Of a stretch of 64,000 nt of DNA, positions 1 to 19,167 are shown piece by piece. A program made the position numbers and the translations under genes. Each line of letters begins with the position of its first letter. The stretch's first letter is position 1. The notes under the pieces were generated by a model, which searched no databases, was not told the DNA's origin, and was given only the letters and a program-made list of their open reading frames with translations. The stretch comes from an uncultured bacterium (GTDB lineage Bacteria > Patescibacteriota > Saccharimonadia > Saccharimonadales > UBA4665), in NCBI GenBank assembly GCA_963794235.1, contig CAWCCP010000011.1:25490-89489 (forward strand). Direction: 5' to 3'.

Positions 1-1284
1 GTTACCGTTACCATGGTCTTCTAATTCCTGTAGAATTGCTTTCTGTTTTACTTCAGTGTCTTTGACTAGCTCCTCGAACAGTTCGGGGCGTAAATTGAAC
101 TTACTACGTTCTTTGAATAGTCGCTTTACTTCATCGTCCTGAACTTTTAATTCATTCAGTAGTCGTGCTTTATTGTCCTTGTAGGATTCTTGCTCGTTAT
201 CAAAGCGTCGTTCAACTTCAGCTTGAAGCTGAGGTAGGAGCTTCTTCGGCACTTGGATTGATTTAAGTAATTCTATGACTTGGTTTATTAATACTCGCTC
301 ATCTACCCATGTAGCACCATGTTTCCCACCGTACTCGGTACACTTTCCGTAAACCTGTCCGTTGTGTTTAGGTCCGTCAAAGGATATTGAAAAACCACAC
401 TTACTACATTTCAGATTCCTGAATAGAAACGGCTTGTTGTTGTACTGAGTTCTGGCGGTGCTTCTCATTTTCTTTACCTGTTGGCATTTCTCCCATAACC
501 ATACTGGCACAATCGGCTCGTATTTGTGAGGATAGAGTTTGTTAACATAGCGCATTTCACCATAGTAGAACGGATTTTGTAGCATTTCTTCCCACTGACC
601 CTTCGTAATGGGCTTTTTGAGTTTAGTATTGCTTACAAGTCCTGCTTCTTTACGGTCTTTGGCGATTGCTCCGTAACTCATACCATTGGAGCGCATTTTG
701 AAACCTTCAAATATATGTTCTGAACGCTCAGGGTCGGGCATTATGTCTTTGATAGGTTCGCCTTTACTGTCTTCACCCTTAACGTAGTTCAAATACCCAA
801 TTGGACTTTTTCCAGGCCACTCTCGGTCATGTAGTTTTTGGTCAATCCTACGTTTTACATTGTCCCGAATAGCACTTGAATAGTAACCAGCTAAGGCTAC
901 ACCAATATCTAGCCTAAATAAGTCGGCTGCTGGTGAATCTTTATGGATAAACAGGTTATCACTTGGAAAATGCAGTTCTATTTTTCCAGCACGGAATAAT
1001 TTAGTCAGGGTAGCCTTTTCTTCAGACGAGGAATCTCTACTAAAGCGGTCAATCTTATCGAAAACTATTATTGATAAGTCTTTAGCAGCCAATAAGGGCT
1101 TCATGACGTTTTCGTTGAATTTCTTTCTAGTATTTTTAAAAGCAGTTTCATCGAACTCGGTATATAGGAAGTCTTTTTTCTCAATCCAGTTCCGTTTCTC
1201 GGCATAATCAAATAGCTTTTGCTTTTGAGCTGGAAGTGCGTCTAATTGTTTTGGGTCAGATACTCGTGCGATTAGGTAATTCAT
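1..1284 (-). CDS. large serine recombinase (integrase); C-terminus runs off window start
   Basis: Own translation from ATG at 1284: MNYLIARVSDPKQ...DKIDRFSRD (resolvase catalytic domain), recombinase domain, Cys-rich zinc ribbon (CSKCG...GKC), then coiled coil. No stop before position 1, so it is absent from the ORF track. Confidence 0.8.
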   Translation of the reverse strand, partial: MNYLIARVSDPKQLDALPAQKQKLFDYAEKRNWIEKKDFLYTEFDETAFKNTRKKFNENVMKPLLAAKDLSIIVFDKIDRFSRDSSSEEKATLTKLFRAGKIELHFPSDNLFIHKDSPAADLFRLDIGVALAGYYSSAIRDNVKRRIDQKLHDREWPGKSPIGYLNYVKGEDSKGEPIKDIMPDPERSEHIFEGFKMRSNGMSYGAIAKDRKEAGLVSNTKLKKPITKGQWEEMLQNPFYYGEMRYVNKLYPHKYEPIVPVWLWEKCQQVKKMRSTARTQYNNKPFLFRNLKCSKCGFSISFDGPKHNGQVYGKCTEYGGKHGATWVDERVLINQVIELLKSIQVPKKLLPQLQAEVERRFDNEQESYKDNKARLLNELKVQDDEVKRLFKERSKFNLRPELFEELVKDTEVKQKAILQELEDHGNGN

Positions 1285-1361
1285 ACCTATAATTCTCACG
1301 GTTTTTATCTAAAAACTCACGGCTATAACCATAAACTATATTGGATAAGAGGCTAGGCTTA

Positions 1362-2523: not shown

Positions 2524-3177
2524 TTATAGCTGGGCTAAATCAGCCTTTGCTTTAGTTAAGTCTGTTTGGTAGGTTTGCATAGCTGTAGTTGCAGTCTGCT
2601 GGTCAGTAGATAATGAAGAACTACCAGTTACGTCATCATCTGCCACAACTTCTTCTGCATTAGCCCATTCCGTTATATCACCTGGTAAGTTACCAGCGTC
2701 AGTATCCCAATTATTTAGTGCGTCTGGTGCTGTTTGATGTGCGTTGTAATAGGCATTGTCTGCTTTATTGTAAGCGTCAACTTGCTCTGTGTTATTAGAG
2801 ACATTCTCTTTATCTTGTTCTGCTGTTTCCCATGTATGGAAATCACTACTAACATCACCAGCATTTGATTCAGCAGCATACGACTGACCCTGCGACATTT
2901 GCTGTTCAAAATCAGCTAATACAGGAGTTAGTGTGGTTACTGATTGTGCGTTAAGGGTGGCGAGCGGGACAGTGGATGCTTGAACTGCGGACTTAGTAGT
3001 AGATTTGATACTTACAGTTTTCGTTTTCTTAGAGCTGCCACTAAATAAGCTAACAATGACTACTATAACGACAATGATAATTCCAAAGACTACTAAGTAG
3101 CCAAAAGTCATAGCTACTTTGCCTGGTGGTTTTTTACCTGCTTTGATTGGGTGTTTAGCTGATATTGGTTCGTTCAC
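2524..3177 (-). CDS. hypothetical membrane-anchored protein
   Basis: 217-aa ORF with a GTG start, a single TM helix (VVFGIIIVVIVVIV) and an acidic, polar extracellular-like tail. Confidence 0.5.
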   Translation of the reverse strand: MNEPISAKHPIKAGKKPPGKVAMTFGYLVVFGIIIVVIVVIVSLFSGSSKKTKTVSIKSTTKSAVQASTVPLATLNAQSVTTLTPVLADFEQQMSQGQSYAAESNAGDVSSDFHTWETAEQDKENVSNNTEQVDAYNKADNAYYNAHQTAPDALNNWDTDAGNLPGDITEWANAEEVVADDDVTGSSSLSTDQQTATTAMQTYQTDLTKAKADLAQL

Positions 3178-3794
3178 GGGTTTTCTCCTATTAGAGTTAA
3201 TAAAACATAAAGCTCACCGCTAGGTGGAATCTTGCGACCCCTACACACCTTTCGATGTGTAACCCGTGAAGATACCTAAACGATGAGCTTAGTATTCTTC
3301 ACGGGATTTATAACCATGCCTTTCGCTAAATTAGCTACTCAGGTTAGGTCATACCAAATTGTTTTAAAACCTGTTGGTTTGATTGAATTATACATTATTA
3401 AGACTATCAGAGGTGAGGGGTTGGCCAACTATACGCCAACTCATAGCCGATTTTAACGATTTGGTGGTGTGCAACTACTCGGTAACTCATCGGCGATTTT
3501 ACAATAATATAGTGCTACAAGTGATACATGATTATAAAAATTACTCACCTCTGTTAAGGGTGGGGTAAAAGGTGGGCAACTCTTGGGTGAAATTACGCTT
3601 ATTCTGTTGTTCTAAATAATACAGCGAAAAATAGTTGCAAAGCGCTACGAACGTGAGGACAATAATAGATAGCGAAGTAACTCTTTCTTAATTACTGATT
3701 TTGCGGAAGCTATATCAGTATTAATAACAAATAAAAAAGTATACAAGTAAGCTGTCTGCGTTATAACAGACTGTTTGCTTGGGGAGATAATATT

Positions 3795-4640
3795 GTGGGA
3801 AATGATAGGTTAAACGCTACGTTCGCAGCCAAATGGACTGAAGAGGTAGCTCAACGAGGGTTCGTGCCAATACATAAGTGTTTAGTTACCTGTATGGGTG
3901 ATTTAGGTCTTAAACCGCAGGAAGTGGGTGTACTTGGGAACATCATCGAGAAGTGCTGGTTCGTAGGTGAAAAGTCATGGAAAAAGGTCGATACCATGGC
4001 AACCGATATAGGACGGTGCAATAGTACCATAAGAGCTATTACCAAAAGCTTAGAAGAAAAACGATTTATCGTCAAAGAACATCGGTTCAACACCAGTAAC
4101 TTATACGACCCAACTCCTACTGGTCAGCGCATACAAGAGCATTTACCAAGCTGTAGGTACTACTCCGCCGAAAAACTGAAGGCTGGTGGTCAGAATACTA
4201 GCGTTCAGGTTAGTCAGAATACTAGCGACTATATAGAACCAGAATTACTTAGAACCAATAATATACAACTTAATAAGGTACAAGATACTTTTTCTAATTT
4301 GCCTAATATAGGTAATGAATTAAGATTTTTAGAGCTCATTAATAAGTATACTAATAGTAATTATCGCTACTTACCAAAAGAGGCTAAAGAAACCCTAAAG
4401 TTATTTAGTCTAGAAGAAATTGACAAAGCTCTACAAGTTGCTACCGTCGACTCTTGGCATAAAGATAAACTTCAAGAACTCAGCGTTAATTATCTATGTC
4501 GTGCAAGTACCATTGATAATTTACTAAGTCGAAGCGACAGTAAGGAAATAAAAAGAACACTAAAACTTAAGCAACTACATGAAGCCAATTTGGACAATCA
4601 GGCAAAATTAGTCGAAAAGGAAGCAGTGGGAGTTTATTAA
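3795..4640 (+). CDS. hypothetical winged-helix/HTH-like protein (possible element replication or regulatory protein)
   Basis: 281-aa ORF with a GTG start after GGGGAG. The N-terminal ~110 aa resemble a wHTH DNA-binding module. The assignment is weak. Confidence 0.4.
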   Translation: MGNDRLNATFAAKWTEEVAQRGFVPIHKCLVTCMGDLGLKPQEVGVLGNIIEKCWFVGEKSWKKVDTMATDIGRCNSTIRAITKSLEEKRFIVKEHRFNTSNLYDPTPTGQRIQEHLPSCRYYSAEKLKAGGQNTSVQVSQNTSDYIEPELLRTNNIQLNKVQDTFSNLPNIGNELRFLELINKYTNSNYRYLPKEAKETLKLFSLEEIDKALQVATVDSWHKDKLQELSVNYLCRASTIDNLLSRSDSKEIKRTLKLKQLHEANLDNQAKLVEKEAVGVY

Positions 4641-4692
4641 GACTGGGTAAATAGAGCTTTGGTATACTAATAAAATAACTTAGGAGAACAAT

Positions 4693-4986
4693 ATGAATGA
4701 TAATGAAGCAAATGAATATCTTGAAACACAAGTAAGAAAAGAGTGGGAAAAAGAATCAGGCGTTGACGACCTAGGTGATTTAATGATGTTGGATACAACA
4801 GATGTAAATGGTCATAAGGCTTGGTCATTCTTTTTTGATAAATTACCAGACGAGTTAGCTAGAGTTGACTTGTGGTTACTCGATAACAAAGTACAAGCGC
4901 AAACAGATAAAGACATTAGTAAGGAAGAACTTCATAAGGAACTTGCCGATAGATTAAACTGGCCTCCTGGAAGCGGTGTGAAGTAA
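4693..4986 (+). CDS. hypothetical acidic protein
   Basis: 97-aa ORF with AGGAG 7 nt upstream of the ATG. Confidence 0.5.
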   Translation: MNDNEANEYLETQVRKEWEKESGVDDLGDLMMLDTTDVNGHKAWSFFFDKLPDELARVDLWLLDNKVQAQTDKDISKEELHKELADRLNWPPGSGVK

Positions 4987-5249
4987 CGAAACTAGAACAA
5001 AAACGCTATCTTCTAAACTTTATTGTTGCGACCACTACTTTTGACGGAGAAAAGCTAGTATTTAACCTAAAAGAGCCATTCAAGGCTCTATTAAACAGCA
5101 AAAATAAAAACACTTGGCTCGACGTACCAGCAATGTTGCGGACTAAGTACTACCGATACGTTGTTGAGCTATCTAGAGAGATTGAAATAGCTCGGAGTTA
5201 CTTACAGAGTCCGTTAGGGCTGTTTAATGGTGAGCTTGGGGTTGCTTAA
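4953..5249 (+). CDS. ORF without canonical start, possibly fused to 4693-4986 by an indel; its C-terminal 45 aa lie inside the inverted repeat
   Basis: Own translation: open frame ...VTKLEQKRYLLNFIVATTTFDGEKLVFNLKEPFKALLNSKNKNTWLDVPAMLRTKYYRYVVELSREIEIARSYLQSPLGLFNGELGVA*. It has no ATG/GTG/TTG near its 5' end and overlaps the end of the upstream ORF. Confidence 0.3.
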   Translation: MKLASWKRCEVTKLEQKRYLLNFIVATTTFDGEKLVFNLKEPFKALLNSKNKNTWLDVPAMLRTKYYRYVVELSREIEIARSYLQSPLGLFNGELGVA

Positions 5250-5340
5250 AAAGCGTATCCTAATTGCAACTTCTTCTTAACAATGTAGACTTGAAGCCTT
5301 ACTTACTAAATATAAGCGAATTTAAGGGTTCAGGCTGTAG
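5115..5340. repeat. left arm of perfect 226-bp inverted repeat
   Basis: The reverse complement of 5115-5340 is identical base for base to 6414-6639 (checked in 10-nt blocks). The outer end is TGGCTC, the reverse complement of GAGCCA. Confidence 0.95.
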
Positions 5341-5933
5341 TACTTTTCGCAAGAATGGTTTTGGGTTTTCTTGGGAACTTAATTAAGAAAACCAAAGTAG
5401 CGCAACATAAAGCAATATACAGAGGAAACCCATACTGAGCAAAAGACCATTGTTTAATAGTAAGTAGTGTTATAACAGCACTTATTGTGCCAAATAGGAA
5501 TACTCCGTAATGTTCAGTTTCGGGTTCCCTGTAAGCTTTAATCATTGTGGGAGTTGCAGCCAGTAAATCAGAGGCGATACTAAATGCAATAGCTATGTTA
5601 CCTTTACCCGTAACACCCCAAGCTATTAAAGCCAGTACTGACAAAACACCACAGATTATATCAAGTCTAGTAATCTTCCAAACAGATTTACGATTAATGA
5701 ACGAAGCAATCAATACCATAGCTGGTCCGAAACCAACCATGAATGTCATTATTGAGCGTAAACCAACGTGTTGACCGAGTTCAGCACTAAAAGCTATTAA
5801 CGGAGCTACCGCCCATAAAAACCATGTAACCCGATTTGGTCTAGTCTTACCTTTTAGCGTTTGAAAAACATAGCTGAGAACTACCAAATAAGTTTAAGGC
5901 CGCCCCAACTAAAACAAAGTTTTCGTTTATCAT
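5330..5933 (-). CDS. multi-pass membrane protein (apparent 1-nt frameshift near 5875-5880)
   Basis: The track ORF 5330-5887 starts at TTG. An ATG at 5933 overlaps the HIT stop as ATGA and encodes MINENFVLVGAALNLFGS in the adjacent frame, which would supply a missing first TM helix. The stop lies in the last 11 nt of the left IR arm. Confidence 0.6.
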
Positions 5934-6400
5934 ACCAAGCAGCTTTTGAGTTTAGCAGCTATTTCATCAATCACTTCATCATTAACAATTCTTTCGGCTT
6001 TATCGTCATAGAACTCGCCATAAAGCGGGTCTTCATACGTCGTATCGCCAATGACGGTAGCTTGTTTATATCGAGGAATGATATGCCAGTGAACGTGTGG
6101 ATTACCTGGCAAAGCTCTGAAAGCATTATTCATATTGCAACCCCAATTAAGTGGTTCTGCTCCAAAAGCAACTTTATATGCTTTCTCAAGTTTCCTAACG
6201 ATTTCTTTGAATTCCTGCCACTCTGATTGATTAAGCTCACTAAGACTTGATTTGTGGGTGCGTAATGTAGCATAGGCTCTACCTAAGTATGCTTGGTTGT
6301 TACCAAGACCAATATTCCAGCTATTCGTTACTAGAATCTGGTGTTTGGGGTCAGCGAGGAACTTGCAAGCGTCGCAGTCTTTATCCATACTGATTATCAT
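5930..6400 (-). CDS. HIT-family (histidine triad) hydrolase
   Basis: HVHWHIIPR matches the H-x-H-x-H-x-x HIT motif. The likely start is MIISMDKD at 6400. The longer track ORF extends into the IR arm. Confidence 0.75.
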   Translation of the reverse strand: MIISMDKDCDACKFLADPKHQILVTNSWNIGLGNNQAYLGRAYATLRTHKSSLSELNQSEWQEFKEIVRKLEKAYKVAFGAEPLNWGCNMNNAFRALPGNPHVHWHIIPRYKQATVIGDTTYEDPLYGEFYDDKAERIVNDEVIDEIAAKLKSCLV

Positions 6401-6413
6401 AACATCAGAGAGC

Positions 6414-6639
6414 CTACAGCCTGAACCCTTAAATTCGCTTATATTTAGTAAGTAAGGCTTCAAGTCTACATTGTTAAGAAGAAGTTGCAATTAGGATACG
6501 CTTTTTAAGCAACCCCAAGCTCACCATTAAACAGCCCTAACGGACTCTGTAAGTAACTCCGAGCTATTTCAATCTCTCTAGATAGCTCAACAACGTATCG
6601 GTAGTACTTAGTCCGCAACATTGCTGGTACGTCGAGCCA
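6414..6639. repeat. right arm of perfect 226-bp inverted repeat
   Basis: Identical to the reverse complement of 5115-5340. The outer end is GAGCCA (6634-6639). Confidence 0.95.
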
Positions 6640-6677
6640 GACCAAGCACCAACAGAGGTAGACCGGGTTCCAAGACC
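6634..6677 (+). repeat. cassette-boundary repeat, GAGCCA core plus GACCAAGCACCAA...GACCGGGTTCCAAGACC
   Basis: About 85% identical to 8256-8298 over ~44 nt, in the same orientation. Confidence 0.8.
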
Positions 6678-6842
6678 GGTCTTCCTTTATTTTTGACAGT
6701 AACTTCTTAATTTTCCACCTCTGTTAGAGGTTCGAATCCAGTTCCTGTTATTACCACAATGGGTTGGAACTGCTAAATATGCGAGTTTACAAGATTTACC
6801 TCTGTAAGTTGGTTCCAGAAGCGACCAGTCACCACTATGGCA

Positions 6843-6878
6843 ACCAAGCAGCATGAAAGCCGACCAGGTTCCATGACC
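6843..6878 (+). repeat. partial third copy of the ACCAAGCA...GACC.GGTTCCATGACC unit
   Basis: ACCAAGCAGCATGAAAGCCGACCAGGTTCCATGACC aligns with the right halves of the 6634 and 8256 copies but lacks the GAGCCA core. Confidence 0.5.
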
Positions 6879-6961
6879 AATTCCAGCCCCACTTGACTCC
6901 TCAGTAGGCCAAAATGTAACGTTAGCAATACTCAGACTTCAAACTGTAATGCGTACCAATA

Positions 6962-6984
6962 TAAAAAGCCCCTCTAAAGGAGCT
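6962..6984 (-). terminator. rho-independent terminator candidate
   Basis: On the minus strand, AGCTCC-TTTAGA-GGGGCT hairpin followed by TTTTT. It overlaps the stop of the small ORF 6974-7135. Confidence 0.5.
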
Positions 6985-7135
6985 CTCTGGTCTGCAAGTC
7001 ATTAGGCTGACGCTTTACGTGCTTGAGACGCTTGCGGCGACGGTTGGCTTCGGTGATAGCAGCCTGCTGGCCGTACTTCACCTTGCGTCTCGCTGCCTGT
7101 ATTGGACCGCAATGGCGGTGTTGATTATGCGCCAT
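6974..7135 (-). CDS. small Arg/Lys-rich protein (53 aa), hypothetical
   Basis: Own translation: MAHNQHRHCGPIQAARRKVKYGQQAAITEANRRRKRLKHVKRQPNDLQTRELL*. It is below the track length cutoff, locally GC-rich, and followed by a terminator hairpin. Confidence 0.35.
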   Translation of the reverse strand: MAHNQHRHCGPIQAARRKVKYGQQAAITEANRRRKRLKHVKRQPNDLQTRELL

Positions 7136-7305
7136 CAGGTCAACCTGCGTTGATTTCCACTACCTAGAATTAGCTCGGTCAGGCTAATACATAATGGGTA
7201 AGTTAAAGTGCCCTTAAATTATATCATGAATTTGTCATGGGGAGACCCGCATCCGCAATTCTTATTATGGCGCTAAGCAGCTTCTATAACGGTTAGATGT
7301 CTCAA

Positions 7306-7572
7306 TTATGCGCTCGTGCGCACCGAACCATGTTTATCAAATACTAAGACCTTAGAATTTCGTTTAGCGGCTCGGGTTCGGGCTGCGCTTATAGCTTCCG
7401 ACTCCGTAGGAAATAAAGTGCCAGGACTAGTACGAACACTCGCTTTTCGTACGTACCAACCTTTACCATTTTGAACCACAAAGTAACTATTGCGTCCTTT
7501 TTCGACAGCATTAACGTACTCTTGAATTTGCTTATTGGATTTAGCTGGTGGTTTCAGTGTCTTAAAAGTCAT
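7306..7572 (-). CDS. DUF2188-like small protein
   Basis: 88 aa. The GKGWYVRK...FPTESEAISAARTRA...VLVFDKHG pattern resembles the DUF2188 family. Confidence 0.55.
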   Translation of the reverse strand: MTFKTLKPPAKSNKQIQEYVNAVEKGRNSYFVVQNGKGWYVRKASVRTSPGTLFPTESEAISAARTRAAKRNSKVLVFDKHGSVRTSA

Positions 7573-7649
7573 ATAGTCCTTGCGCTCGTTTTATCTCATC
7601 TTCATTATACTGGTTTTTCTTTATGAATTCAACGAGATCATTCCTATTC

Positions 7650-8177
7650 TTATCTGTTAAAACTTGAAACTCCATTTTTTTGGCCCTGTCTTTTATGGTC
7701 GTAGTTACTCACGATAATAGTTATAGGAATATCGGGATATGCTTGAGAGATCTTCAAAAGAGTGGCTCGAGAATCACTATGCGTTCGATAGAAATGCTTT
7801 GGTGAAAATTGTCTATCCCGACTAAAGAAAGCTTCAAAGGCAGTTACAAAATCGGCTGGCCAGACTGCATGCACCTCTACATTCTTTTTAAATTGTAAGG
7901 CTTTTTCTATCTTGGTGGTTGCTCGTCTAAGACTTGAAGATGTTCCATCATAGACAATGACAGGCGCACGCTCTAAATATGCTGATACATATTCAGACTT
8001 ACCTGAAGCACTACCGCCAGACATGACAATGACCGTTTTCTCAGACCTGGTCTTTAGTGCATCTTCAAAAGCCTTATCAGCAAGCCGGGTGGATGCTTCA
8101 TGGAACTCTTCAGCTCTACTCGGATCATAACCCGGCAAGCTCTCTTTCATATCGTCGGCAGAAATAATGAAGGCCAT
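7650..8177 (-). CDS. P-loop kinase, zeta-toxin/AAA_33-like
   Basis: 175 aa with Walker A MSGGSASGKSE and the size and layout of small zeta-type nucleotide kinases. Confidence 0.5.
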   Translation of the reverse strand: MAFIISADDMKESLPGYDPSRAEEFHEASTRLADKAFEDALKTRSEKTVIVMSGGSASGKSEYVSAYLERAPVIVYDGTSSSLRRATTKIEKALQFKKNVEVHAVWPADFVTAFEAFFSRDRQFSPKHFYRTHSDSRATLLKISQAYPDIPITIIVSNYDHKRQGQKNGVSSFNR

Positions 8178-8255
8178 ATAGAAATTGTAACCTAATACAC
8201 CCTAGTCTAACAGCGTGATCGATCCATGGGCCATGTTTAACTCATGAGCGATGGT

Positions 8256-8298
8256 GAGCCAGACCAAGCACCAAATTAGGTGACCGGGTTCCATGACC
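8256..8298 (+). repeat. cassette-boundary repeat, GAGCCA core plus GACCAAGCACCAA...GACCGGGTTCCATGACC
   Basis: Direct repeat of 6634-6677. Confidence 0.8.
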
Positions 8299-8319
8299 AG
8301 CCCTCGATTGATGACTCAT

Positions 8320-10002
8320 CTACACGATCGCACCATGACACTTCTTATACTTCTTACCACTTCCACACGGACAAGGTTCATTACGCCCAATCTTCTCCCC
8401 GGTTTGCAGAGAAAAAGCTGTTAATTTATCATTAGTGGGTTCCCGCGTGCTAAAATCTAGTCCAAGCGACAATACGAAATTTTCATAAGCAAAAAGCTCG
8501 TGATATTTGTTCTCTTGTCTGAGTAAATCTTCGGTAGGCTTCTGACCGGCTTTCCGCCGCTCTTTTGCTTCACTCAGTCGTCTTGACTCAAGTGAACGAT
8601 CAATTTGTTCCGCCTCTTTCTGCGTCTGTTTATAACCATGTTTATCGCCGAGGTTCTCGTAAGCTGCTAGCAGGTAATCCTCTAGGCACTGCAGCGGCCA
8701 TTCATCTGGCTCAAGTTCGCCAGCAAGCACCCTGTCCCAGACTGTATGACTTACCCCGATTGTCTTGTGGTCTTCGCCAGTCTCCAGCAAGCCGCGGGCA
8801 ATTCCCATAGCCATCATTTGACTGTGCTCTGGATAACGCTTGAGTAACTGCTCTAATTGATACTGCCAATTCGTATCTGCAGCAATTCGCCTAATCACAT
8901 CAGCTACCGCAAAGTCTGGGAAAAAGCCGCTGGCCAGACCGGCTTCAGCAATAGTGAGCATGTGTTCCGCAACACCCGATTGCCGAAGCACCTCATACGC
9001 TAACAAATCATGAATAGTAGCCCGCAAATTTGCAACCTCATGAGGATATTTCTGATATGTTTCAAAGACCGCTTTGTCAGCTTGCTCAAAAGCCCAGGCT
9101 AAGCGCTCTATGGTAGAGAAATAGAGGCTGCTGTCGGGCTCAACATCTTCCAGATCTAAAACGATTGACATAAAAGTCTCTATGAGCGGCCGGGTAATCA
9201 AGCGATCCCACAGCACCTCGCAGGCGGCATAGAGATAATCATCATCAACTTCTTTAATGCCAGATGCTCGTGCTTTAACTTTGTCAACGACAGCTTCGAT
9301 AGTATCTTTAACCGGACGGCCGATGGTTTTGAACTCTATCTCACCAAGCTTAATACCCATTTTGGCCAACTTTTTTAGAATATGCTCGGTCGATGTGGTC
9401 TCTAGATCTTTAGACGATACAAAATCAAAACGCGGGTTGTCTGCAAGCTTGCGCAGGCTATATTGCAAAAAGTCACCCCGTAGAGCCTGTTCTTGTAGCT
9501 TTTGTCCGAAACTATATTGCGGATTTAAACGCAGCGCGATGTTTAGCGCTGCTTCGCCCAGTAGCAAATTACCATTAAGATATGCCGTTGATGCAACATT
9601 ACCAAACAAACGATAGGGTTCGGCGAGGATCATGCGTTCATCCAGAGCCATCTGCAACGTCTGCAGCCAGAGTGTCTCGCTTTCTTCCGCGTTACCGCGG
9701 CGTAGCGCAGCATCGGCTGCCATCGACATTTCAACGATGAATGTCGGATCTATGGTATGTAACATAGCTCCGCTCAAGGCCGATCTATCTGTTGCGACTG
9801 GCTTAGCGGCTTGAAGGATATTGTCAATCTCTGACGGTTTAATATTGAGACTGGCTGCCATGCTAATCAAAACCGATAACCAAAGAGGTGCCTTGTCGGC
9901 ACTGGCCGTATCCATTTGACGCCACCGCTCCAAATCCTCAGCCGTCAATATGCTTTCAAGCTGTGTACCACGAATTGCGTCGTTGATTGCTTTAGTATTC
10001 AT
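8320..10002 (-). CDS. SEC-C motif domain protein
   Basis: C-terminal [14 protein letters not shown] matches the SEC-C zinc-binding motif, and the body is helical-repeat-like. The preferred start is MNTK at 10002, preceded by GGAGGA. The track ORF extends further upstream, overlapping the next gene. Confidence 0.6.
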
Positions 10003-11180: not shown

Positions 11181-11287
11181 ACTTTTATTTTACCACATAT
11201 CATGCATAAAATATACGCAAAAATTTGACAAATAACAGGTGTAAGCTAAGGTAAAGCGAGCCCAATATTTAGGCGGTAATTGAGTTT

Positions 11288-11318
11288 GGTGCGAATCCAG
11301 TTTGGGGAGCCATAAGCA
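11288..11318 (+). repeat. cassette-boundary repeat (GGTGCGAATCCAGTT...GAGCCATAAGCA)
   Basis: The core GAGCCATAAGCA at 11307-11318 is shared with 14873, 15637 and 16649. The left part GGTGCGAATCCAGTT matches 6729-6743 at 14 of 15 positions. Confidence 0.7.
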
Positions 11319-12024: not shown

Positions 12025-12091
12025 CCGCCTAAATATACTGTAACCCAATTAAATCCTGCTTTATTACGGTTATAACTTCCTCTATTGTGGG

Positions 12092-12103
12092 GAGCCAAGA
12101 TTA
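12092..12103 (+). repeat. cassette-boundary core variant GAGCCAAGATTA
   Basis: GGGGAGCCA, as at 11304-11312 and 15994-16002. It is followed by the terminator hairpin. Confidence 0.5.
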
Positions 12104-12114
12104 GAGCTGATATT

Positions 12115-12140
12115 AACAGAGGTAATTGCCTCTGTTTTTC
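12115..12140 (+). terminator. rho-independent terminator
   Basis: AACAGAGG-TAATTG-CCTCTGTT followed by TTTTC. Confidence 0.6.
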
Positions 12141-12192
12141 ATTTTGGGATACCAGGGTGGCACTTGTTAGAACTTTTGCTATGATTAGTCAC

Positions 12193-12312: not shown

Positions 12313-13658
12313 CCTTAACAGATTGCTAAGGCTACAATGAGCGTGTACGGAGGACAACCAGTTTCGATTATTGAGGGACCTTTATATAGGTTATTTCCTG
12401 TCGTAGTTTGTTGCTTCCGAAACACTTGGTGGTAACCAGCAATAATGAGGTTATTGAGAAAAACCTTGGCATTTTATCCCTGTTCCGAACGTTGAGATCG
12501 ATCTAAGAACAAAGGGTACCAAGGCTTTTCTACAGTCAATAACGAACAAGTCTATGGTATCACCGAGGCACCTTCATTGGAAGCGATGCCACCGTACCCA
12601 ATACTAAGCTTTTGACCATGGTTCTGTTCAGTAGAGCCAGAGGGGGTGTTTGTTATGACCAAAAATACGTATGTGCTTGGCTGCGACGTATCCAAGCTAA
12701 GAATTGATGTCGCTCTGCTTGATGGGTACGGTAAAGTGCAGTGGCACGACATTGTGCCGAATGAAGTTACTGAGTTCACGGCTTATTTGTTGACGCTTCA
12801 AGGCAACTATCCCGAGACCGAGATAGAATGCGCCGTTGAAGCCACCGGACCCTATCACTATGCATTACTCGATGCTTGCCAGCATGCAGGCATACCCTGC
12901 CGGGCATTCAACCCCATTATGACCAAAGACCAGTCGAGCGTTCGAGGGAAGAAGACAGACAAGATTGACGCCATTAAGATCGCTCGCGTTGGTATGAATG
13001 GAGAGGTACCAATTTGGCGTCCTGAGCCGTATCTGACAGCAAAGACTCTGGCCCGTTCCATGCAAAAGTTGCGGAAGCTAAGCCTCTCATTAAACGCTCA
13101 CTGTAATTACCTTACGGAAACAGCCGCATTGGCTATACCGGACAGTGCCACGAAAGTAATTGAAGACATTAGGGTGTCAATTACTACTGCACATGAGCAG
13201 CTTTTTGCCGAACTTATACAAAGCACGCAAGGCAAGACCTACCAGCTATTACAGACTATTCCCGGTGTCGGTCCAATTACCGCGACCAGCGTTATTGCCG
13301 AGATTCAGGACATGAAACGCTTCACAAAAGCCTGTCGGTTGGTCGCCTATGCCGGTCTTGACTTTCCAGTTAAACAGAGTGGCGAAACATCGAGACGTGG
13401 CAAACATCTGACCAAGCGTGGCTCAAGTCACTTAAGGCGAAGCCTGTTCGTAGCCGCCAGCGTAGCTCGGCAACACGACCCATATTTCCGGTCGGTCTAC
13501 GAAAAGAAACTGAGGCGAGGGCAAGACATACAAGGCTGCGGTCATTGCCGTGGAGCGGAAACTGTTACTGGTAATACGGGCAGTGTGGCTGAGTGGTAAG
13601 GCGTATAACGGAGATTTGTTGCTCAAGGAAGCACCTTAATGAGCTTCAGATGGCTCGA
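12313..13658 (+). mobile_element. IS110-family insertion sequence (ends approximate)
   Basis: Higher-GC block inside the split kinase gene, comprising a 333-nt non-coding 5' region and a DEDD-type IS110 transposase. No terminal inverted repeats were seen, as is typical for this family. Confidence 0.7.
12646..13639 (+). CDS. IS110-family transposase (apparent frameshift near 13515-13520)
   Basis: LGCDVSK, EATGPYH, KTDKIDA, IPGVGPITA and KQSGE...G.HLTKRGSSHLR motifs. The expected C-terminus GKTYKAAVIAVERKLLLVIRAVW...* is read in the +1 frame and ends at 13639. Confidence 0.8.
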
Positions 13659-14230: not shown

Positions 14231-14261
14231 CTATTTGACATTGATATATGAGGCTATGACC
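14231..14261 (+). repeat. 31-nt direct repeat, copy 1
   Basis: CTATTTGACATTGATATATGAGGCTATGACC versus 14386-14416 CTACTTGACATAGATATATGAGGCTACTACC, matching at 27 of 31 positions. Confidence 0.7.
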
Positions 14262-14385
14262 TTAACATCACACTGATCAAAGGCTTCACCACCTCTGTCT
14301 CTTTTAAACATACTAATACTATAGCATATTAGAGTTATTCTATCAACAATCCCGTATTTTCGACCCCATTTGGCGTGTGCTTGTC

Positions 14386-14416
14386 TACTTGACATAGATA
14401 TATGAGGCTACTACCA
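14386..14416 (+). repeat. 31-nt direct repeat, copy 2, at the resumption point of the split kinase gene
   Basis: See 14231-14261. It also contains ACTTG...TATAT...TACC, echoing the left junction GATTACTTGTATATTACCC at 12290-12308. Confidence 0.7.
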
Positions 14417-15513: not shown

Positions 15514-15648
15514 TTATTTCGAGCCACACTTGTCTTCGTCGCTAGATTCAAACAGCTGGCGGATTTGTTGAGCTTCCACCTCCTTATTCTTAACGCTATC
15601 CAACTCTTCGAAAGTTTGGAATAAAAACCATTTGCCGAGCCATAAGCA
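15514..15648 (+). repeat. gene 3'-end remnant (minus strand: ...WLGKWFLFQTFEELDSVKNKEVEAQQIRQLFESSDEDKCGSK*) plus core GAGCCATAAGCA
   Basis: One of three copies, the others at 18205-18315 and 19051-19167. A 31-nt block AAAGTTTGGAATAAAAACCATTTGCCGAGCCA is identical in all three. Confidence 0.85.
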
Positions 15649-18204: not shown

Positions 18205-18315
18205 CTAGGATGAATTATCTTCAAACAGTTGATAAATTTGCCGGAAATCAGACTCATTATCCTTAACACTATCCAGCTCTTCAAAAGTTTGGAATAAAAA
18301 CCATTTGCCGAGCCA
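18205..18315 (+). repeat. gene 3'-end remnant copy 2 (minus: ...WLGKWFLFQTFEELDSVKDNESDFRQIYQLFEDNSS*) plus GAGCCA core
   Basis: See 15514-15648. Here the core is followed by AGCCAGAC instead of TAAGCA. Confidence 0.85.
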
Positions 18316-19050: not shown

Positions 19051-19167
19051 TTACAACTTGTCGAGGGTCTCATCGACAAGCAAGCGTATCTGCCGAATTT
19101 CCAAATCCTTGTCTTTAACACTATCCAGTTCTTGGAAAGTTTGGAATAAAAACCATTTGCCGAGCCA
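19051..19167 (+). repeat. gene 3'-end remnant copy 3 (minus: ...WLGKWFLFQTFQELDSVKDKDLEIRQIRLLVDETLDKL*) plus GAGCCA core
   Basis: See 15514-15648. Here the core is followed by AGCCCAAG. Confidence 0.85.

Follow-up and report, generated by a model that had tools for sequence, protein, structure and literature searches.

The inverted repeat and its cargo

The 64-kb stretch of DNA analysed here (the window, from contig CAWCCP010000011.1) carries a perfect inverted repeat that brackets two genes and lies close to the gene of a large serine recombinase (LSR), the enzyme that would run the integrative element to which we assign the whole arrangement. Positions 5115-5340 are the exact reverse complement of positions 6414-6639 (226 nt per arm, 100% complementary, with a 1073-nt spacer), as the initial annotation had claimed, and a perfect repeat of this length is too long to be the product of chance; no second inverted repeat of at least 30 nt occurs anywhere in the window. 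The identity between the arms starts precisely with TGGCTC at the left end and stops precisely with GAGCCA at the right end, the adjoining outer bases being different. The same annotation had placed this hexamer at the outer ends of the arms and at the boundaries of the neighbouring cassettes, and this is confirmed, as identity stops right there, the motif recurs, and it would represent the recombination core of the element. Each arm is composed of three parts, namely 1) the 6-bp core, TGGCTC or GAGCCA, 2) the last 44 codons of the LSR gene, hereafter the tail, and 3) a 91-nt extension that is specific to the cargo (Table 1).

The enclosed genes form, as first described, a minus-strand pair encoding a HIT-family hydrolase and a multi-pass membrane protein, with the ATG of the membrane gene overlapping the stop codon of the HIT gene as ATGA. 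The hydrolase matches the Pfam HIT family and has 115 homologues, the nearest of which, other than itself, is 74% identical; it is 60-74% identical to HIT proteins from Saccharimonadia-type contigs, and the contigs of one close homologue (P0003) resemble a Saccharimonadia/Patescibacteria chromosome. The membrane protein, of about 200 aa, belongs to a Patescibacteria family of more than 850 members. Alignment with these relatives reveals a one-base insertion near position 5876 (within 5870-5880, TCTCAGC against TCCAGC in the relatives) that shifts the frame by +1 after about codon 18, while the C-terminus is full length, the final 11 nt of the gene, including the stop codon, falling within the left arm. 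Either the frameshifted gene is a pseudogene, or it yields an N-terminally shortened product from the TTG at 5887, or the insertion is an assembly error.

Two other proposals for this segment were dropped. The cargo was considered as a recognised defence system, for which PADLOC returned weak matches only (the HIT protein to ThsC, and the KAP-family NTPase that occupies the slot in a relative to PifA/QatA), and the 91-nt extension was considered as a remnant of the native flank of HIT/membrane homologues, for which the alignment scores fell inside the shuffle range. In two further loci, direct repeats of about 59 nt that end in ..CAGGGTCACCATAA lie on either side of an 85%-identical homologue of the membrane gene (L009 1271-1316/2027-2072 and L007 9913-9971/10668-10726). 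As this homologue adjoins an element with a different LSR, the membrane-gene family appears to travel also as cargo of another element type.

Recombinase tail and attachment sites

The LSR gene at the left edge of the window has an intact frame over its visible part (428 codons), and its product is classified as a serine integrase through the LSR of L010, one of the related loci (L-numbered, all from metagenome assemblies) with which the window was compared. The L010 enzyme has 521 aa and carries a Resolvase (PF00239) and a Recombinase (PF07508) domain; window positions 1-1357 match its gene, and the two proteins are 95% identical over 428 residues. Two further segments of the element align closely with the same locus: positions 3418-5250 are 94% identical to L010 9589-11456, and positions 4986-5120 correspond, with 97% identity and through GAGCCA, to the reverse complement of L010 3545-3679, where the LSR gene of that locus has its 3' end. 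The latter segment lies within what had been listed as an open reading frame (ORF) at 4953-5249, in which no ATG, GTG or TTG is found ahead of 5133 and which contains about 43 pre-core LSR codons, the core, and then 44 further codons (WLDVPAMLRTKYYRYVVELSREIEIARSYLQSPLGLFNGELGVA and the stop). The initial annotation was right that the left arm encodes the C-terminus of an open frame, in our count its last 44 residues, but this frame is a copy of an LSR 3' end and not a free-standing gene, and fragments of this kind are better annotated as recombinase tails than as genes.

An exhaustive protein search recovered one full-length LSR (P0286, 505 aa, with Resolvase and Recombinase domains) and two partial ones (P0285 and P0279) that align unbroken across the core, and the LSR of L016 (545 aa) bears the same tail contiguously. 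In the alignment of the LSR C-termini, the tryptophan encoded by the core (W55) and an arginine within the tail (R63) are invariant. Because these proteins run continuously over the junction, the tail represents the native C-terminus of this LSR family, which places the recombination core inside the reading frame. Both tail copies look coding, judging from L017, where the two keep open frames with a ratio of nonsynonymous to synonymous polymorphism (pN/pS) of 0.19. A programmed frameshift fusing the preceding 97-aa ORF to the recombinase fragment was also considered and rejected, as no slippery site is present and the L017 copy is broken by an in-frame stop. The full-length LSR had no match among PDB sequences, and a BLAST search with window positions 3000-9000 against phage and plasmid collections matched only the SEC-C motif of an unrelated gene.

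The core itself points to a tRNA gene as target. In seven loci (L017/L018, L024, L025, L032, L033 and L034), an antisense tRNA-Asn(GTT) ending in GGAGCCA abuts the 3' end of the LSR gene, and TGGCTC is complementary to the final six bases of this tRNA, whose 3' end we take to be the integration target (attB) of the LSR family. L010, L021 and the sites visible in the window have degenerate ..GGGGAGCCA sites and no intact tRNA. Once integrated, the LSR gene ends in a short substitute tail from the antisense strand of the tRNA, supplied in L010 by the degenerate ..GGGGAGCCA site, and the native tail is located at the opposite end of the element, followed by GAGCCA and then by the chromosome. Since the attP-type core lies inside the LSR frame and is equal to the end of tRNA-Asn, integration would detach the C-terminal tail of the very enzyme that presumably carries it out. 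Integron attC sites and a tmRNA target had been considered as well and were dropped after the core was found to match the tRNA-Asn 3' end.

The position of the crossover can be read from an occupied and an empty site. When the sequence to the left of the first core of L010 is joined to that to the right of its last core, the product aligns continuously across GAGCCA with window positions 12028-12185, the right half alone scoring 48 against a shuffle maximum of 27, and it is because of this continuity that we place the crossover inside the core. By comparison with L010, the right arm of the window would represent an element-chromosome junction. Hybrid att sites together with a matching empty site are thus found for the 93%-identical L010 element, the window element itself displaying its right junction. 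The empty site in the window adjoins a truncated P-loop kinase ORF and the gene of an IS110-family transposase (12646-13599).

Table 1. Features of the element, its cargo and its attachment sites in the window
Feature	Position	Strand	Remarks
LSR gene, N-terminal 428 codons	1..1284	-	tblastn with L010 LSR: residues 1-428, 95% identity, intact frame; 3' end beyond the left window edge
Rep-like HTH_36/DnaD_N protein, 281 aa	3795..4640	+	Weak Pfam HTH_36 match; relatives 99% to 38% identical adjoin LSR genes
Conserved ORF, 97 aa	4693..4986	+	Follows the Rep-like gene; called in every L010-L015 relative
Inverted internal copy of the last ~43 LSR codons before the core (P arm of attP-like site S2)	4986..5114	+	129 bp
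Core TGGCTC of internal attP-like site S2	5115..5120	+	Encodes the invariant Trp and the next Leu; identity with the LSR 3' end ends and identity with the other arm starts
Left arm	5115..5340	+	5115-5249, LSR C-terminal tail ("exon B"); 5250-5340, cargo-specific extension including the last 11 nt of the membrane gene
Membrane protein gene (cargo gene 2)	5330..5933	-	Patescibacteria family; +1 frameshift
HIT-family hydrolase gene (cargo gene 1)	5930..6400	-	Pfam HIT match
Right arm	6414..6639	-	Identical tail and extension on the minus strand, immediately upstream of the HIT gene
Core GAGCCA of site S3, putative element-chromosome junction (attL/attR type)	6634..6639	+	Window and L010 ~93% identical left of the core, unrelated right of it
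Chromosomal flank of S3	6640..6680	+	GACCAAGCACCAA..GGTTCCA.GACC; recurs after GAGCCA at 8256, partly at 6843
Unoccupied attB-like site	12029..12125	+	Homologous to the site occupied in L010

Related elements and competing explanations

Equivalent inverted repeats around unrelated cargo are present in four further sets of loci, which come from different samples and were produced with different assemblers: L010 (arms of 193 nt, 100% identical, around a KAP-family NTPase gene), L017-L020 (222 nt, 93%, around genes for proteins of 737 and 165 aa, with one layout in four assemblies), L021 (193 nt with one mismatch, around a gene for 415 aa, in a 1.12-Mb contig of a Saccharimonadia metagenome-assembled genome) and the decayed L038 (80 nt, 100%, around a gene for 518 aa). 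The layout is therefore a trait of the family. In addition, intact members carry a second inverted repeat (124-142 nt, 95-99% identity) between the 3' end of the LSR gene itself and the internal copy, and this copy is kept across relatives whose Rep-like proteins are only 55-73% identical. Its left boundary directly follows the stop codon of the small ORF after the Rep-like gene in the window, L010 and L021, and likewise in L017, save for an 11-nt deletion; this shared boundary indicates one old origin.

The arms, on the other hand, are not diverged at all within the window or within L010 and are about 7% diverged between these two genomes, a pattern from which we infer that they evolve in concert. 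Their identity had been attributed to recent duplication or ongoing gene conversion, and the comparison favours the latter in the sense of ongoing homogenisation, but not the former, as the layout is older than the split from these relatives. In L017, all 15 of the 15 mismatches between the arms fall in the outer 108 nt, the inner 114 nt being identical. L016, which combines the contiguous-tail LSR with a convergent AAA_13 cargo gene and whose contig ends inside the LSR-fragment repeat, may represent another state of such an element.

Two relatives show changes of their own. In L038 (8000-9920), GCTGTTTAAT at the 3' end of the LSR gene and ACTGTTTAAT in the tail, with CTGTTTAAT microhomologies, delimit a deletion that removed the LSR gene, the Rep-like gene and most of the internal copy, and left a tRNA-Asn 3' fragment, the core, remnants, the 80-nt inverted repeat, the 518-aa cargo and the junction tail. 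In L021 (2561-2568), the core of the internal attP-like site reads TGGGTC, as compared with TGGCTC at the other two sites of the element; either this change inactivates the site within its crossover region, or the difference stems from an assembly error.

We consider it probable that the repeat is the right-end module of an LSR-run integrative element residing in a Saccharimonadia (TM7) chromosome, where it brackets a cargo slot, and not a dedicated switch. Comparison with the relatives shows the left arm to be part of an internal, inverted attP-like copy that comprises the 129-bp LSR 3' fragment, the core and the tail; the right arm to be the detached tail on the minus strand, ending in the core GAGCCA and followed by the chromosome; the slot between the two tails to hold variable accessory genes, here those for the HIT and membrane proteins; and the arms to be homogenised within each genome. 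Gene conversion or template-directed repair between the arms would keep them identical and could also have pushed the repeat 57-91 nt past the stop codon of the tail into cargo-adjacent sequence. In their inverted arrangement, recombination between the arms could not delete the cargo, and, as two homologous anchors, they would allow whole cargo units to be exchanged between related elements, which would account for the presence of unrelated cargo in otherwise 93%-identical elements. Were the element excised between its tRNA-side junction and S3, a full-length LSR gene would be rebuilt.

Several points weigh against this explanation. The tRNA-side junction of the window element lies beyond the window edge, and neither a circular or excised form nor a rebuilt attP was found: scans of JGI metagenomes and GTDB genomes with exact 27-mers of the tail gave no matches, and scans of IMG/VR with the LSR, the Rep-like protein and the tail gave no relatives. 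The extension is identical between the L017 arms while the tail has diverged, which gene conversion of whole arms would not predict, and the cargo gene of L016 is flanked by an isolated inverted repeat of 36-50 nt that is not contiguous with the tail, which suggests that another process also makes repeats around cargo. Gene conversion and cassette exchange are themselves deduced from sequence patterns. Moreover, the explanation does not account for the origin, purpose and conservation of the internal inverted attP-like copy, nor for the cargo-specific extension, which in every case takes in the stop of the final cargo gene.

The initial annotation had instead proposed an invertible expression switch, in which recombination between the arms flips the HIT/membrane segment so that it is read either from the Rep-like operon (plus strand) or from the chromosomal side (minus strand). 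In favour of this model, a perfect inverted repeat of 226 bp lends itself well to RecA-dependent inversion, the gene of a serine recombinase is located 4 kb away, the concerted evolution of the arms implies that they interact physically, and outside promoters could govern expression, as no consensus promoter was found in the arms and candidates lie at 3763-3791 (+) and 7632-7604 (-). Several short-read contigs of relatives also end at these repeats, but some of the ends fit one k-mer into the repeat, and the repeats alone would give such breaks.

What argues against the switch is, first, the orientation of the cargo, which can be scored because the arms are not equivalent, one being joined to the LSR fragment and the other to the chromosome. 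In the window, L010, L017-L020, L021 and L038, cargo transcription runs from the junction-side arm toward the internal arm, and the last cargo gene reaches into the latter, stop codon included, by 11, 44, 59, 55 and 49 nt; the five partial contigs L026, L028, L031, L037 and L040 share this orientation. The opposite orientation, for which a search among related genomes had been suggested, was seen in none of these loci when their assemblies were compared, and the layout of L017 is unchanged in four assemblies even though its arms are 93% identical. Nor do the arms resemble the sites of an invertase, being duplicates of the recombinase tail and its att site rather than short recombinase-binding repeats, with an LSR and an IS110-family transposase as the only recombinases nearby. 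Canonical serine integrases act on the pair of attP and attB, not on attP together with a hybrid, attL/attR-type site (PMC3783163); as S2 and S3 form a pair of the latter kind, inversion driven by the enzyme is not expected. A flip between identical arms would alter nothing within 226 bp of either junction, so that only read-through from distant promoters could differ, and one of the two genes to be switched is frameshifted. A dedicated expression switch is therefore not supported by these comparisons and we consider it unlikely, although rare, RecA-dependent flipping by homologous recombination between the arms is possible.

A second alternative, which we likewise hold to be improbable, gives the internal copy a role of its own: recombination between it and the 3' end of the LSR gene, across the inverted repeat of about 135 bp that the two form, would flip the body of the element and give a full tail back to the LSR truncated by integration, or else the copy would serve as a second attP that spares the LSR gene from being split. 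In favour of it, the internal copy is conserved over relatives with Rep-like proteins of 55-73% identity and is, in each genome, 95-100% identical to the 3' end of the LSR gene; both tail copies of L017 are open under the low pN/pS given above; the tail is conserved in full-length LSRs, including the invariant R63; and the contiguous-tail LSR of L016, convergent with its cargo, shows the gene order expected after a flip. Against it, the copy in L017 is interrupted by an in-frame stop within its LSR-fragment part, the core of the L021 copy is altered, L016 has no second tail copy at the expected place, and no single element was seen in its flipped state among the loci compared. In the window, the intact attP-like copy S2 and the empty attB-like site also coexist unrecombined, for which the inactivity of a tail-less LSR is a possible account. 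A wider proposal, which we offer as a speculation and judge rather unlikely, is that a working internal copy acts as a spare 3' end and second attP, so that an LSR that has truncated itself regains its tail when the body flips across the ~135-bp repeat, and that copy and junction tail together form a two-anchor platform for swapping accessory or defence-like genes (KAP NTPase, AAA_13 ATPase, HIT) among members of the Candidate Phyla Radiation (CPR) without risk of deletion.

That a fold-back or chimeric assembly created the second arm, which the initial annotation had named as its own alternative, is hardly credible: arms without a single difference and a source that appears to be metagenome-derived would fit, but the repeat is internal to the contig and ends exactly at a biologically defined core, and independently assembled relatives (varied assemblers and samples, including the 1.12-Mb contig and arms of 93% identity) show the equivalent layout with unrelated cargo. 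A non-autonomous transposon, with the two genes as passengers between 226-bp terminal inverted repeats, is very improbable too, since such repeats with defined ends, the lack of a transposase inside and an IS110-family transposase 6 kb off would fit, but the flanks (..ACACT and GACCA..) contain no target-site duplication, in each arm the outer 135 nt are homologous to the coding tail of the LSR and continue into the LSR fragment on the left, the inner ends share no motif among relatives and the outer ends only the LSR core, and IS110 elements, to our knowledge, do not use long terminal repeats.

In the reading that we favour, a right-end module of an LSR element, the locus shares most with the LSR elements and prophages of the phiC31, Bxb1, A118 and SPbeta type: an LSR with Resolvase and Recombinase domains, att sites with a small common core, hybrid junctions flanking the integrated element, and the relation between occupied and empty sites. 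By sequence, it appears to have the testable features of a serine-integrase element, and its mobilisation is predicted. It differs from them in that 1) the attP-type site lies inside the LSR frame, whose last 44 codons are swapped on integration, 2) the target is the 3' end of tRNA-Asn, and 3) there is an internal inverted attP-like copy, the tail of which forms, with the junction tail, a long inverted repeat around the cargo. Targets at tRNA 3' ends are more typical of tyrosine integrases.

An attP within the recombinase frame, here with the invariant tryptophan of the core 44 codons before the stop, has counterparts. In the Myxococcus phage Mx8 (intP/intX), attP is located within the integrase gene, whose 3' end is changed on integration. 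In archaeal integrases of the SSV type, the recombinase gene spans its own attP, and integration into a tRNA gene splits the gene or alters its 3' end (PMC8371274). The enzymes of both are, however, tyrosine recombinases, in contrast to the serine recombinase found here, and an internal inverted duplicate of att site and tail, as is present here, is not described for them.

The resemblance to invertible switches (Hin/Gin/Cin, fimS-type invertons and shufflons) consists in an inverted repeat that brackets genes, with a serine-family recombinase nearby. In those systems, however, the sites measure about 14-30 bp, compared with arms of 193-226 bp made of coding tail and cargo flank, and here there is no polymorphism of orientation among relatives and a flip leaves the local promoter-gene junctions as before. 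Concerted evolution, with a boundary that creeps into unique sequence, is also known from the inverted repeats of plastid genomes and of the yeast 2-micron plasmid, but scale and context are different, as the att cores lie here at the outer ends of the repeat, not in its middle, around an accessory slot of 1-3 kb.

A full-text literature search on serine-recombinase elements of Saccharibacteria returned nothing relevant, and mobile elements of Saccharimonadia and other CPR bacteria appear to be poorly described. The locus and its relatives define a family whose ends are clear, whose target is tRNA-Asn and whose core measures 6 bp, and they supply explicit att sequences for a new group of serine integrases, which find wide use as tools of genome engineering. 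The design is unusual in that the attachment site would lie within the recombinase gene itself and an inverted copy of this region would bracket a hot-swappable cargo slot, which raises the question of whether detachment of the tail locks the element in place and the spare copy unlocks it.

The neighbouring cassette run and minor observations

To the right of the element, the hexamer GAGCCA recurs on the plus strand between 6634 and 19900, at 6634, 8256, 11307, 12092, 14873, 15637, 15997, 16649, 18310 and 19162, and most of these sites are followed either by TAAGCA and a terminator-like hairpin or by GACCAAGCACC. Remnants of the T arm of tRNA-Asn are present at 6729-6742 and 11287-11301. Judging from their translations, by which the ORFs of this region were named (the Pfam scan there covered the IS110 transposase only), the cassettes between the sites encode mostly toxin-antitoxin pairs, together with RibD_C-like and glycerophosphodiester-phosphodiesterase-like ORFs. 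The run, which extends over 13 kb, looks like a series of decayed serial integrations at one tRNA-type site, and this would explain what had appeared as a cassette array. It is similar in this respect to tandem genomic islands accreted at tRNA genes, being bounded by GAGCCA and by tRNA-flank-like or T-arm remnants, but carries 6-bp LSR cores and detached recombinase tails in place of the long tRNA 3'-end duplications left by tyrosine integrases.

Within this run, three 96-nt copies that are 78-80% identical and each end in GCCGAGCCA are found at 15547-15642, 18220-18315 and 19072-19167. Read on the minus strand, in frame from TGGCTC, they encode W-L-G-K-W-F-L-F-Q-T-F-E-E-L-D.., and they may be the detached C-terminal tails of other serine recombinases.

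Elsewhere, the window contains chromosomal genes, among them those for KaiC, enolase, and MMPL and MFS transporters. Inside the element, a LOOT RNA of full length (Rfam RF03000) is found on the minus strand at 3226-3350, where it separates the accessory genes from the Rep-like gene, with 72 bits against a gathering score of 46.4; the proposal that it is a conserved part of the element was dropped, as it is absent at the gathering score from L010, L016, L017 and L021. Further to the right, a 31-nt direct repeat with 87% identity (14231-14261 and 14385-14415, CTAYTTGACATWGATATATGAGGCTA..) contains a TTGACA box and may be a duplicated promoter-like sequence.

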